The notes under the pieces: model-generated
Told to the model about the DNA's origin: nothing
The model's database searches: none
The model's input: only the letters and a program-made list of their open reading frames with translations
Virus record (IMG/VR): IMGVR_UViG_2778261577_000002
Span: 1-9,532 of that record
Strand: one strand, 5' to 3'
DNA: 9,532 nucleotides
Origin: a virus
Taxonomy: Duplodnaviria; Heunggongvirae; Uroviricota; Caudoviricetes
In this document: positions 1 through 9,532 of the stretch, piece after piece
How positions within the stretch are numbered: the first letter of the stretch is position 1
Layout of the letters: each line of letters begins with the position of its first letter
Position numbers and translations under genes: made by a program

Positions 1-55
1 AGTCATCGGGCATTATCTGAACATAAAACACTATCAATAAGTTGGAGTCATTACC
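1..55 (+). mobile_element. IS1: IS1 right-end fragment: last insB codons (2-40, ...KVIGHYLNIKHYQ*) plus terminal inverted repeat ending GGAGTCATTACC at 55
   Basis: Recognised by recall as the canonical IS1 3' terminus; frame 2..40 translates to the InsB C-terminus with TAA at 38-40; the element is cut by the window edge. Confidence 0.93.
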
Positions 56-376
56 CAATAGTTGTATTGAATCACTGACGAGACAGCCTCATATTTATCA
101 GGACTGGTGTGCGTCTAATACAGGGGGTTGTCGTGCTGGTTCTCAAATGTGCGCTGGCTATTGCGGCTGTAATGGCAATTTATTGTCTTGCTGTTGTTCT
201 TATGGAGCGGCTTTCTGATTGATTACATACTGGCTAGAAAAAAGGTGTTACCTTGGTTTATCTTTGTCCGGCAAGGTGCGCTCATTAATCTTAAGTAAAT
301 TTATTGCTCAAGTATTCAGATTACTTCTTATGGTTGAAGTCTCCTGTCAATGTAGAACCAATATATTTACAAAAAT

Positions 377-406
377 GAGACCCGTCGGGGATAGCCCTGC
401 CGGGTC
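377..406 (-). terminator. Rho-independent terminator downstream of the minus-strand YeaR-like gene
   Basis: Inverted repeat AGACCCG...CGGGTCT (377-383 / 400-406) forms a GC-rich hairpin; on the minus strand it is followed by a T-run (complement of CAAAAATG at about 369-376), just past the CDS stop at 437-439. Confidence 0.55.
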
Positions 407-436
407 TGACGGTTAAAGCATTTTTAATATGATCAT

Positions 437-775
437 CTATTTTTTGGTGCTATAGACTTTTTCGCCCGAGAAGTCTGGAGCGACCCAAAAGTTAATATTA
501 AACTGAGCATCATCGCTTAGTTCAACACGGTGCCAGTATTGTGGTGGGCTTGTTGCAAAAGCGCCAGCATTAATGACTACTTTTATCTCCGGTTCAGTAG
601 CATTCTCATCAGTAAAACCATAATATGTTACAGTGCCTTCCATTACGCACAACTGCCCAAAAACACCTGCTGCTGTATTATGATGTGTTAATAACGCTGA
701 AGGTACGTTCTCTTTTGTGAAGAACGGAGTTGAGCGTTTGATTACCCAATCTTTAGGAATTCTCTTGTGTGTCAT
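437..775 (-). CDS. YeaR-like DUF1971-family protein (small cupin-like, TehB-N-terminal-related), 112 aa
   Basis: Six-frame ORF 437..799(-); recalled similarity to E. coli YeaR along the whole length (KRSTPF, VMxG, EP, AGxFA, PP, WH, FNI blocks). Start placed at the internal ATG 775-773 (MTHKRIP...) because a strong SD GAGGAGGTGG lies about 6 nt upstream on the minus strand; the ATG at 799 has no SD. Confidence 0.8.
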   Translation of the reverse strand: MTHKRIPKDWVIKRSTPFFTKENVPSALLTHHNTAAGVFGQLCVMEGTVTYYGFTDENATEPEIKVVINAGAFATSPPQYWHRVELSDDAQFNINFWVAPDFSGEKVYSTKK

Positions 776-790
776 AACCACCTCCTCAAA

Positions 791-813
791 AACATGCATT
801 ATAAATGCGTGTT
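791..813. promoter_or_regulatory. Imperfect palindrome AACATGCATTA-T-AAATGCGTGTT resembling an NsrR (Rrf2-family) operator, overlapping a minus-strand TATAAT (798-803) just upstream of the YeaR-like gene
   Basis: Both half-sites match the recalled 11-1-11 NsrR consensus (AAnATGCATTT n AAATGCATnTT) with one mismatch each. The minus strand reads GCATTTATAATGCAT, so a perfect -10 hexamer sits inside the palindrome. A perfect TTGACA lies 21 nt further upstream on the minus strand, which is non-canonical spacing. Confidence 0.4.
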
Positions 814-1100
814 TTTGAGGGTTATGTCAAGCTGTTATGAAACACATAATTGATATGTTGATTAGAGGAGAAGATATAATAAATATGGTTGTTTTTCGTA
901 TAACTATTTGTTTTACTTTTAGTTTATGCATTCTGTGTGTTAGGAATAAGTTATTAAAGTTTAATCAAAAAATCTCGATGTAGTCCACATAGATTATTGT
1001 TACTGAACCTTATTGTGTGTATTAGTTGTGTTCTGAAATTTCAGCTTAATTATTTATGATGTATTTTTTAACGATAAATATTTTCCCAGGATACCTTTAC

Positions 1101-3351: not shown

Positions 3352-3427
<76 letters not shown>

Positions 3428-3430
3428 TAT

Positions 3431-3505
<75 letters not shown>

Positions 3506-7097: not shown

Positions 7098-7889
7098 ATG
7101 AGCGAGAAATTAAAGATAGTCTATCGCCCATTACAAGAATTGCCACCGTATGCGCACAACGCCAGGACGCACAGCCCTGAGCAGGTGGCACAACTGGTAG
7201 AAAGTATTAAGCAATTCGGCTGGACTAATCCGGTGCTGATTGACGAAAAGGGCGAAATTATTGCGGGTCACGGTCGTGTTATGGCGGCTGAAATGCTCAA
7301 AATGGATTCTGTTCCGGTCATTGTTCTGTCTGGCCTGACGGATGAGCAGAAAAAGGCGTACCGCCTGGCAGATAATCGCCTGCCGATGAATGCTGGCTGG
7401 GATGAAGATCTGTTGCGGATGGAGCTGTCGGACCTAATCAATGCTGATTTTGATGTCTCCCTGACAGGCTTCATCCCGACAGAAATTGATGAACTGTTGA
7501 CGGATGTTTTGCCCGGTACAGGAAATGAGGAGGAGCCGTATACGACGAAAATTGATACGCCTGTTTATGAGCCGTCGGGCGGTAAACCGGATATCAGTGA
7601 ACTGTACGACGATACGAAAACTCAGGAGCTGATCAGCCGGATACGTTCGGCGTCCCTTGAGCCTGATATTGAGAAATTCCTCCTGTGTGCGGCAGAACGT
7701 CACACGGTGTTTAATTTCAGCAGAATTGCGGACTATTACGCTCACGCCCCCGCTGAAATCCAGTGTTTTTTCGAGGAGTCGGCGCTGGTGATCATTGATT
7801 ATCAGCAGGCTATTGAAAATGGATTTGTCCGGATGACGCAGCGCATGGTGGAGATCATGCATGGTGGTGAGGAGGAGGAATATGCGTGA
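7098..7889 (+). CDS. ParB-like nuclease-domain (ParB/Srx superfamily) protein with an uncharacterised acidic C-terminal domain, 263 aa
   Basis: N-terminal about 120 aa has the ParB-N architecture (conserved ...NARTHSPEQV...L..SI...GW.NPVLID..GEIIAGHGR..AA motif). The C-terminal part has no methyltransferase motifs and ends GGEEEEYA. The stop TGA (7887-7889) overlaps the downstream start. Related to K-12 Rac ynaK by position. Confidence 0.8.
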   Translation: MSEKLKIVYRPLQELPPYAHNARTHSPEQVAQLVESIKQFGWTNPVLIDEKGEIIAGHGRVMAAEMLKMDSVPVIVLSGLTDEQKKAYRLADNRLPMNAGWDEDLLRMELSDLINADFDVSLTGFIPTEIDELLTDVLPGTGNEEEPYTTKIDTPVYEPSGGKPDISELYDDTKTQELISRIRSASLEPDIEKFLLCAAERHTVFNFSRIADYYAHAPAEIQCFFEESALVIIDYQQAIENGFVRMTQRMVEIMHGGEEEEYA

Positions 7890-8814
7890 TGATTTTTGCG
7901 CCTTTATTCTGACTCACGGGCGACCGGACAAAGTTCTGACTTACCGGACGTTGCGTCGTGCTGGCTATACCGGGAAAATTTTTATCGTTGTTGATGATGA
8001 AGATAAGACACGGCATCAGTACATGGCTGAATTTGGTGAACAGGTGCTGGTGTTTTCCAAAGCCGATATCGCCAGTCGTTTTGACGAAGCCGATAATTTC
8101 TGTGACCGCCGCTCAATTTTTTACGCCCGTAATGCCTGTTTCGACCAGGCAAAACTGGTCGGGTGTAAATACTTCATTCAGCTCGATGATGATTATCACG
8201 AGTTCCAGTTTCGGGTGGATCGCAACTATGACCAGGCCTATTTTCCGATAAGGAAACTGGATGCGATCCTTTCTGAAATGCTGGCGTACTACGAATCAAT
8301 ACCTGCTCTTTCCATCGCTATGTCGCAGGGAGGGGATTTTCTTGGTGACAATGGCGGCCATGCTTCGTGGGTGAAACGCAAGGCAATGAACAGCTTTATC
8401 TGTTCGGTTGATCGACCGTTCTCATTCATGGGGCGCATTAACGAGGATGTGAATACGTACACGAATCTCGGTCGCTGTGGTGAATTGTTTATGACGATCG
8501 GTGCTGTCCAGTTAGGGCAGAAACAGACGCAGAAAAACAGCGGCGGAATGACCGAGCTGTATCTGGATTCCGGAACCTACGTTAAAAGTTTTTACTCCGT
8601 CATGTATGCGCCGTCGTGCGTAAAAATCTCACTGATGGGTGCCAGCCATAAACGCATTCACCATCAGGTCACCTGGAACAACGCTGCAGTAAAAATCCTT
8701 CACGAAAAATACAGGAAGAAGACACCCTGCATATCAATGGGGGTGACAAATGATTCCGTATTCGAAAGTCGAGTCTCTGGCAGCGTGCCGGATGACTGCA
8801 CAACAAATCGCTGA
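7882..8814 (+). CDS. Uncharacterised protein with a GT-A-like nucleotide-sugar transferase signature (N-terminal beta-strand CAFILTHGRP, FIVVDDED, DxD-type motif QLDDDYHEF), 310 aa from ATG 7882
   Basis: The ORF is open from 7861. ATG 7882 is preferred because GAGGAGGAGG lies 5-6 nt upstream and it overlaps the ParB-like stop by 8 nt, suggesting translational coupling; ATG 7861 with SD GGTGGAG is a possible alternative. The fold call is a motif-based inference, not a database match. Confidence 0.7.
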   Translation: MRDDFCAFILTHGRPDKVLTYRTLRRAGYTGKIFIVVDDEDKTRHQYMAEFGEQVLVFSKADIASRFDEADNFCDRRSIFYARNACFDQAKLVGCKYFIQLDDDYHEFQFRVDRNYDQAYFPIRKLDAILSEMLAYYESIPALSIAMSQGGDFLGDNGGHASWVKRKAMNSFICSVDRPFSFMGRINEDVNTYTNLGRCGELFMTIGAVQLGQKQTQKNSGGMTELYLDSGTYVKSFYSVMYAPSCVKISLMGASHKRIHHQVTWNNAAVKILHEKYRKKTPCISMGVTNDSVFESRVSGSVPDDCTTNR

Positions 8815-9178: not shown

Positions 9179-9532
9179 TGCTGCCAACTTACTGATTTAG
9201 TGTATGATGGTGTTTTTGAGGTGCTCCAGTGGCTTCTGTTTCTATCAGCTGTCCCTCCTGTTCAGCTACTGACGGGGTGGTGCGTAACGGCAAAAGCACC
9301 GCCGGACATCAGCGCTATCTCTGCTCTCACTGCCGTAAAACATGGCAACTGCAGTTCACTTACACCGCTTCTCAACCCGGTACGCACCAGAAAATCATTG
9401 ATATGGCCATGAATGGCGTTGGATGCCGGGCAACAGCCCGCATTATGGGCGTTGGCCTCAACACGATTTTCCGCCATTTAAAAAACTCAGGCCGCAGTCG
9501 GTAACCTCGCGCATACAGCCGGGCAGTGACGT
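9174..9532 (+). mobile_element. IS1: IS1 left end (IRL GGTGATGCTGCCAACTTACTGAT) through insA and into the insA/insB junction; truncated by the window edge
   Basis: Recognised by recall as the canonical IS1 5' terminus; same orientation as the IS1 fragment at 1-55. Confidence 0.95.
9229..9504 (+). CDS. insA: IS1 InsA (transposition inhibitor / N-terminal part of the InsAB' transposase), 91 aa, GTG start
   Basis: Translation [91 protein letters not shown] matches IS1 InsA as recalled, apart from one residue (IFRH here, ILRH in the copy I remember). Confidence 0.96.

Follow-up and report, generated by a model that had tools for sequence, protein, structure and literature searches.

Does a gene carried by a temperate phage answer to the nitric oxide (NO) sensor of its host? 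The question is raised by a small open reading frame in a 9,532-nt stretch of phage DNA (hereafter, the window), which lies on the strand opposite to the neighbouring phage genes, and by the palindrome immediately before it. The first-pass annotation had read this pair as a DUF1971/YeaR-family cargo gene whose core promoter lies under an operator for the repressor NsrR. That central reading has held up: the site passes a weight-matrix scan and is conserved in orthologues. We consider it probable that holo-NsrR occludes the promoter by binding at 791–813, that NO releases it, and that the DUF1971 protein is then made and aids nitrosative-stress tolerance. The positions of all features are collected in Table 1.

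The DUF1971 gene and its prophage setting

The minus-strand open reading frame found in the sequence spans 437–799. We assign the true start to the ATG at 775–773 because a Shine-Dalgarno (SD) sequence stands directly before it and because all orthologues begin at the equivalent methionine, which in them is preceded by GGAG; the alternative upstream ATG at 799 falls within the operator. The protein matched the Pfam family DUF1971 (YeaR/TehB N-terminal domain) over profile positions 1–80 of 80 (E 2.3e-26), and the RefSeq annotation is an identical 339-nt CDS. Its relatives in the PDB are 3DL3, 3BB6, and 3M70. It shares about 80% identity with the Vibrio fischeri protein of 3DL3 and 75–82% with chromosomal proteins of Kluyvera, Leclercia, Citrobacter, Klebsiella, Raoultella, Salmonella, Vibrio, Photobacterium, and Shewanella, with His32 and His82 invariant throughout this clade and in YeaR (alignment A1). 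The same two histidines of the Salmonella protein STM1808 were reportedly implicated in metal binding by Karlinsey in 2012. The product is a small cupin-like protein with two invariant histidines, and the E. coli/Shigella counterpart of Salmonella STM1808.

The locus belongs to a Rac-type lambdoid prophage of E. coli/Shigella; in strain ET82 it has recE, kilR, sieB, and ydaT/V on its upstream side, with trkG and ynaK-like genes downstream. The DUF1971 gene is present in 466 of 5,426 complete E. coli genomes (about 8.6%). In all loci that we inspected, five prophage loci and one phage, it directly precedes the DUF1367-YbcO-Q module and runs on the opposite strand. Its left neighbour varies: a SIR2/deaminase cluster, Hok with KilA-N, QueH or, in the window, IS1. 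Three sequenced phages (vB_EcoS-666R9 and relatives) have the gene at the same place. It had initially been described as lying between an IS1 and the phage late genes. The IS1 end and the opposite orientation were confirmed, but the neighbours on the other side are the nin/Q module rather than late genes proper. We attribute bases 1–51 to IS1 because they have a median of 10 matching places per E. coli genome; unique prophage sequence starts from about 52. Since IS1 sequence is found at both ends of the window, the window is a Rac-type segment flanked by two IS1 copies, an arrangement typical of Shigella and of E. coli rich in IS1.

Downstream of the gene, RNA folding revealed a terminator-like hairpin followed by a run of five U. 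A strict terminator scan made no call downstream of the gene, missing this hairpin because its loop is longer than 8 nt. As an A-run precedes the hairpin, the terminator may be bidirectional. The window's ORF list holds no yoaG-like reading frame downstream of the gene. On both counts, a terminator and no yoaG after the gene, the first-pass annotation was right. The gene has its own predicted promoter and terminator, is inserted between phage modules, and is patchily present among related phages; by these sequence features it is a self-contained moron of Rac-type lambdoid prophages.

In the Rac prophage of K-12 MG1655 (L088, 4753–5645), the rzpR pseudogene comes right after ydaW. Everything between the two has been deleted there: the DUF1971 gene with the nin/Q module, tRNAs, holin, and lysozyme. 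None of the 27 NsrR sites of strain CFT073 (PMC5320621 Table 4) matches the operator of the DUF1971 locus, so that both strains used for published NsrR ChIP, K-12 and CFT073, seem to be without it. The loss of the locus from K-12 Rac, together with its having no match in the CFT073 list, would explain its absence from published NsrR regulons. A literature search on Rac prophage with NsrR, and on DUF1971, found nothing on this locus.

Several other features of these prophages deserve mention. In ET82 the left cargo slot (L001, 8302–11375) holds a TetR regulator, an adenosine deaminase, a non-canonical NTP pyrophosphatase, and a SIR2 protein, and looks defence-type; elsewhere (L083, 4491–5912; L084/L085, 220–889) KilA-N with Hok and QueH are among its contents. 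Between the Q-like gene and the holin, at 3352–3505 of the window, are two tRNA genes, tRNA-Thr(TGT) and tRNA-Gly(TCC); an Rfam scan of the window found nothing besides these two. At 7098–8814, a ParB_N-domain protein (263 aa) overlaps a 317-aa protein matching a TET-associated glycosyltransferase (PF20691, E 1.4e-34), and the two may be a prophage DNA-modification pair; in this region K-12 keeps only short ynaK and ydaY fragments.

Table 1. Features of the DUF1971 locus, in window coordinates.
Feature	Position	Strand	Remarks
End of an IS1 copy	1..51	.	In place of the variable left cargo; thousands of matches in E. coli genomes
Terminator-like hairpin (AGACCCG...CGGGUCU), then CAUUUUUG	371..407 (hairpin 378-407, U5 to about 371)	-	From RNA folding
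CDS, 112-aa DUF1971 protein (STM1808/TehB-N-terminal-like type)	437..775, stop codon included	-	Pfam PF09313, RefSeq WP_000149055.1
Shine-Dalgarno GAGGAGG	781..787	-	5 nt ahead of the ATG; in the outer right palindrome arm
Extended near-perfect palindrome, 17-nt arms and 3-nt centre	784..820	.	Encloses the operator; arms 784-800 and 804-820, 94% complementary
Predicted NsrR operator, 11-1-11 inverted repeat, AACACGCATTTATAATGCATGTT	791..813 (read 813-791)	-	20.7 bits, P about 1e-7
Perfect TATAAT	798..803	-	21 bp from TTGACA, without its own -35
CATTTA, likely -10 (operator positions 7-12)	802..807	-	By homology; 17 bp downstream of TTGACA
Perfect -35 hexamer TTGACA	825..830	-	11 nt upstream of the operator; invariant among all E. 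coli alleles; homologous to TTTACA of Kluyvera-group promoters
Second IS1	InsA 9229-9504; IS1 from near 9200 to the window end, 9532

A predicted NsrR operator over the core promoter

To score the palindrome, we used a palindromised matrix built from 26 distinct published E. coli 11-1-11 NsrR sites (Table 4 of the CFT073 ChIP-seq paper, PMC5320621), which had themselves been selected with a matrix. The 23-mer agrees with the AAGATGCATTT-N-AAATGCATCTT consensus at 18 of 22 positions and holds the TATAAT at 803–798. From the exact score distribution, its 20.7 bits correspond to a P of 5e-8 under uniform base composition, 1.6e-7 under that of the window, and 2e-6 at 70% A+T, so that 0.0005–0.02 such sites are expected per window. 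The ln P values of −16.8 (uniform) and −15.6 (window composition) lie below the published PatSer cut-off of −14.28 and so pass it, a comparison that is approximate since our matrix was rebuilt from the sites listed in PMC5320621 and is not the authors' own. When the published sites were scored by leave-one-out, the operator ranked 7th among the 26, between ygbA (20.95) and gadX/yhiX (20.6) and above the accepted targets hmp (17.9), grxD, and hycB. A matrix made from ChIP-positive sites only gave it 19.6 bits.

The match is also specific. In 314 kb of fetched DNA, matches of at least 18 bits occurred nowhere but in DUF1971 promoters, at the known yeaR site of K-12, and within a tandem cluster found in three marine genomes. 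A scan of the whole window found no second NsrR site above 12 bits; a weak NsrR-like site at 871–893 (12 bits) differs between alleles and was treated as noise. The weight-matrix scan had been proposed in the first-pass annotation, which described a 23-bp imperfect palindrome of NsrR type with a perfect TATAAT inside it on the minus strand. That description proved accurate, and where a score below threshold with a curated matrix would have spoken against the reading, the score lies above it.

We next consider the orthologues, for which the 250 nt upstream of 80 loci were scanned. Nearly all enterobacterial orthologues have an NsrR site of 21–30 bits centred 27–39 nt before the ATG, and in each 3.3-kb enterobacterial locus this site is the top match. 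About ten enterobacterial genera carry it (Kluyvera, Leclercia, Buttiauxella, Citrobacter, Klebsiella, Raoultella, Salmonella, Yokenella, and others), the single clear exception being one Leclercia locus (L010, 12.2 bits). In the 250-nt scan, most Vibrionaceae orthologues lacked an NsrR site immediately before the gene. The positional conservation of the site across about ten enterobacterial genera strengthens the NsrR reading. The chromosomal location of the orthologues varies, for example after nhaB-dsbB in Salmonella and beside a SIS-domain gene in Kluyvera; since the places differ by genus, promoter, operator, and gene travel together as a unit. The window promoter aligns to those of Kluyvera (score 21) and Buttiauxella (20), against nulls of 12 ± 2, and shares with them the spacing of −35, 11 nt, and operator.

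The operator might instead be a chance match in A+T-rich DNA, or the site of a phage repressor, a different Rrf2 protein, or some other regulator. At the 70% A+T of the intergenic region, chance matches become about 13-fold more frequent than under window composition and about 40-fold more frequent than under uniform composition, and the specificity of NsrR is relaxed, with many ChIP sites thought to be non-functional (PMC5320621). Even at 70–75% A+T, however, 0.02–0.04 sites are expected per window, and the chromosomal, non-phage orthologues of many genera keep near-consensus NsrR half-sites at a constant spacing from the start codon. This fixed-distance conservation excludes a phage-specific repressor and chance, and we regard this explanation as a whole as extremely improbable.

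Two further observations concern the surroundings of the orthologues. The DUF1971 genes of Neptunomonas and Parendozoicomonas have no NsrR site immediately before them, and tandem NsrR-like sites of 18–24 bits lie 0.5–1 kb off (L067, 1962–2019; L068, 815–861; L075, 466–488 and 2534–2591), presumably serving neighbouring genes. In the Kluyvera, Leclercia, Buttiauxella, Pantoea, and Enterobacter loci (L004–L025), a Fur-box-like element with 13–17 of 19 matches to GATAATGATAATCATTATC closely precedes the −35, centred about 75 nt ahead of the ATG, and a similar Fur-like box occurs in two Photobacterium loci. This suggests dual control of this DUF1971 clade by Fur and NsrR. In the window, the homologous stretch at 838–856 (caattatgtgtttcataac) has 12 of 19 matches, not above the null, and is decayed.

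Turning to the promoter itself, the orthologues place their −10 hexamer at operator positions 7–12 (TATTTT in the Kluyvera group, TATATT in Citrobacter, CATATT in Klebsiella), in each case 17–18 bp after a −35-like hexamer. By this homology, the −10 of the DUF1971 gene is probably CATTTA, which lacks the −7 T, and less so TATAAT. A consensus promoter scan called no promoter with 16–18 bp spacing for the gene, and TATAAT has no partner −35 at that distance. The operator begins 11 nt past TTGACA and holds both candidate −10 hexamers, so that with either of them it would overlie both the −10 and the start site (predicted near 795 with CATTTA and near 791 with TATAAT), a repressor-like geometry. 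The operator had originally been placed within the −10 region, with the TATAAT inside it; its overlap with the core promoter stands, while TATAAT, given its distance from TTGACA, is probably not the −10. No NarL heptamers, FNR boxes, or CRP boxes were found in the 225 nt upstream of the gene.

Taken together, the arrangement suggests the following mechanism. The gene would be transcribed, against the phage early-right direction, from a sigma-70 promoter of its own (TTGACA, a 17-bp spacer, and CATTTA and/or the TATAAT overlapping it), through the DUF1971 CDS to its own terminator. The repeat at 791–813 would serve as operator for the host [Fe-S] repressor NsrR, and, as it would cover the promoter from roughly −22 to +2, RNA polymerase would be blocked by holo-NsrR. 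NO would nitrosylate the NsrR cluster, the repressor would be released, and the gene would be turned on. By analogy with STM1808, the DUF1971 protein would then add to the nitrosative-stress tolerance of the lysogen.

Operator alleles and the extended palindrome

The 21 E. coli, Shigella, and phage copies that we sampled fall into nine alleles of the 87-nt promoter region. Operator scores range from 17.7 to 27.8 bits over the seven alleles that were scored, and the window allele (AACACG...), at 20.7 bits, is among the weaker E. coli alleles. Its weakness is due to the C at operator position 5 (window 809), where T is preferred; this base occurs in none of the 26 training sites and scores −4.75 bits. 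The window operator lies 5–7 bits below three of the four other main scored E. coli alleles (L083, L084, and L086; 25.7–27.8), the L085 type being weaker (17.7), and 8–10 bits below most chromosomal orthologues (about 29 bits). From these scores, repression from the window allele may be partial.

Such a deficit raises the possibility that the operator came with the gene but is now a decayed remnant that binds NsrR too weakly, leaving the gene constitutive or silent in an A+T-rich, possibly H-NS-bound prophage region. The penalty base found in no training site would fit this, as would the poor −10 and the clear decay of the adjacent Fur-like box of the Kluyvera-type promoter. However, the site still passes the published threshold and outscores, by leave-one-out, three accepted targets. 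It is also carried by the commonest allele class: over a 66-bp core, 143 genomes are identical to the window, 145 have 1–3 differences, 119 have 4–6, and 51 have more. Moreover, its high-information positions are kept in all nine E. coli alleles despite hypervariable flanks. This is the main alternative, and an allele too weak to repress well would make expression leaky or constitutive; we think it unlikely and favour a working, if weaker, NsrR operator.

Among E. coli alleles, no part of the locus is more polymorphic than the promoter palindrome. In the 87-nt alignment of the nine alleles, 16 of the 19 variable columns lie inside a 39-nt palindrome, within which 10 of the 16 flank columns are variable, compared with 6 of the 23 in the NsrR core. 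The variable core positions are 3–5, 11, 12, and 17; positions 1, 2, 6–10, 13–16, and 18–23 are invariant. Over a longer stretch available for five alleles, variable columns number 13 of 37 in the palindrome versus 20 of 339 in the CDS. This pattern fits constraint on an operator core that sits inside a mutable quasipalindrome.

The palindrome is longer than the first-pass annotation had it, reaching 7 nt past the NsrR core on both sides, an extension that is allele-specific and absent in four of the nine E. coli alleles (A6–A9). As a DNA hairpin, the extended palindrome folds with −14.2 kcal/mol (z −8.1). As minus-strand RNA, the whole palindrome with CATAACC/GGTTATG (762–835) folds with −23.8 kcal/mol (z −5.6), with the SD and the AUG paired; only transcripts initiated upstream of the predicted promoter would include this full hairpin. 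In this folding model, the arm extension of some alleles would also lock the SD and AUG of transcripts started upstream. Two mirrored double changes are seen among the alleles, one from C:G to A:T via a C:T intermediate and one from A:T to C:G.

These features could indicate that the palindrome is chiefly a nucleic-acid structure: an RNA hairpin sequestering the SD and AUG, a hairpin formed by the early-right transcript of the plus strand, or a cruciform in the DNA. The extension on each side, the stable RNA fold that buries the SD and start codon, and the mirrored changes all point in this direction. Yet the extension is missing from nearly half of the alleles, and covariation across the nine (2 pairs) was equalled in 103 of 500 shuffles and is not significant; for these two reasons we claim no conserved secondary structure. 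Transcripts from the TTGACA promoter would begin inside the palindrome, lacking its left arm, and there is no minus-strand gene upstream from which to read through. Finally, the part that is conserved in orthologues is the 23-mer that matches NsrR. Mirrored changes can also arise without selection, by arm-to-arm template switching in quasipalindromes, which is a possible neutral cause of those seen here. A primarily structural role is thus highly unlikely in our estimation, and we retain the NsrR operator as the main function of the palindrome.

Changes in the arms also touch the SD region. In a common allele (about 100 genomes by extrapolation, and the Shigella flexneri copy), GATGAGG replaces GAGGAGG (782–787; L003- and L089-type alleles), and an allele rarer than this GATGAGG type has an additional mirrored C-to-A change in the left arm. 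It is tempting to speculate, although we think it unlikely, that the hypervariable quasipalindrome lets Rac-type prophage alleles set different NsrR affinities, and with them different NO thresholds or basal levels of the cargo gene.

If the NsrR reading is confirmed, a temperate-phage cargo gene is plugged directly into the NO-sensing circuit of its host, and about one in twelve sequenced E. coli strains, as well as Shigella, have one more NO-inducible stress protein, belonging to a type that contributes to virulence in Salmonella. The well-studied NsrR regulon would gain one accessory member, and the alleles would provide a natural operator series for how the strength of an NsrR site sets expression. 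The finding leaves the understanding of NsrR and of DUF1971 proteins unchanged.

Relation to yeaR, STM1808, and other known systems

The chromosomal yeaR-yoaG operon of K-12, which is NsrR-repressed and NarL-activated, encodes a protein of the same Pfam family with the same invariant histidines and has an upstream 11-1-11 NsrR site (23.9 bits in K-12); yeaR is an accepted NsrR target (PMC5320621). The first-pass annotation had taken the prophage gene for a second, mobile-element-associated copy of yeaR that retains its nitrosative-stress regulation. This idea had to be abandoned. The prophage protein is 41% identical to K-12 YeaR versus 79–82% to the STM1808/Kluyvera/Vibrio clade. The comparison with the chromosomal yeaR promoter, also proposed there, gave a score of 12 against a null of 11.4 ± 2.1, so that the two promoters cannot be aligned and have nothing alike beyond the motif. 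In yeaR a long leader is present and the NsrR site is about 85 nt from the ATG, whereas the site of the prophage gene lies 27 nt ahead of its ATG. The features that would make the prophage gene a yeaR-yoaG orthologue, namely YeaR orthology, a downstream yoaG, and a NarL architecture with its boxes, are all absent from it.

The STM1808-type protein of Salmonella is a far closer relative. It is 79% identical (P0014, P0019), has 113 aa compared to 112, and keeps His32 and His82. Its gene is monocistronic, and in S. arizonae and S. diarizonae an NsrR site of 20.7–23.6 bits lies 39 nt before the ATG. In identity, in near-equal length, and in having an NsrR site upstream, the window gene belongs with the STM1808-type group. 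The two differ in their setting: the Salmonella gene is chromosomal, downstream of nhaB-dsbB (S. arizonae), with another −35 region and an upstream terminator, while the window gene is prophage-borne and accessory. From gene order and LT2 numbering, we take the Salmonella gene after nhaB-dsbB to be STM1808. The 2012 work of Karlinsey et al. reportedly showed that STM1808 is under NsrR control and has a part in NO resistance and virulence. A passage of PMC7527575, citing Karlinsey 2012, lists STM1808 as an NsrR-regulon gene with a role in virulence.

The highest identity, 80–82%, is to the chromosomal DUF1971 genes of Kluyvera, Leclercia, Buttiauxella, and Pantoea. Kluyvera-group promoters are homologous to that of the window, with the −35, 11 nt, and an NsrR site over the −10 whose centre lies 27–30 nt from the ATG. 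They differ in their Fur-box-like element and in operators that are nearer to consensus (24–30 bits, except L010).

The wiring of phage morons to host regulators is a general concept for lambdoid phages. The window gene resembles other morons in being an autonomous promoter-gene-terminator unit between phage modules, in opposite orientation, and present or absent among relatives; what would set it apart from the general concept is that its regulator would be the NO sensor NsrR. As early as 2005, the NsrR regulon of enterobacteria had been predicted to include a tehB homologue (PMC1274295). With this tehB-like target predicted and STM1808 established in the NsrR regulon, the prophage gene is not a new kind of system; what is new is a prophage-borne example of that arrangement.
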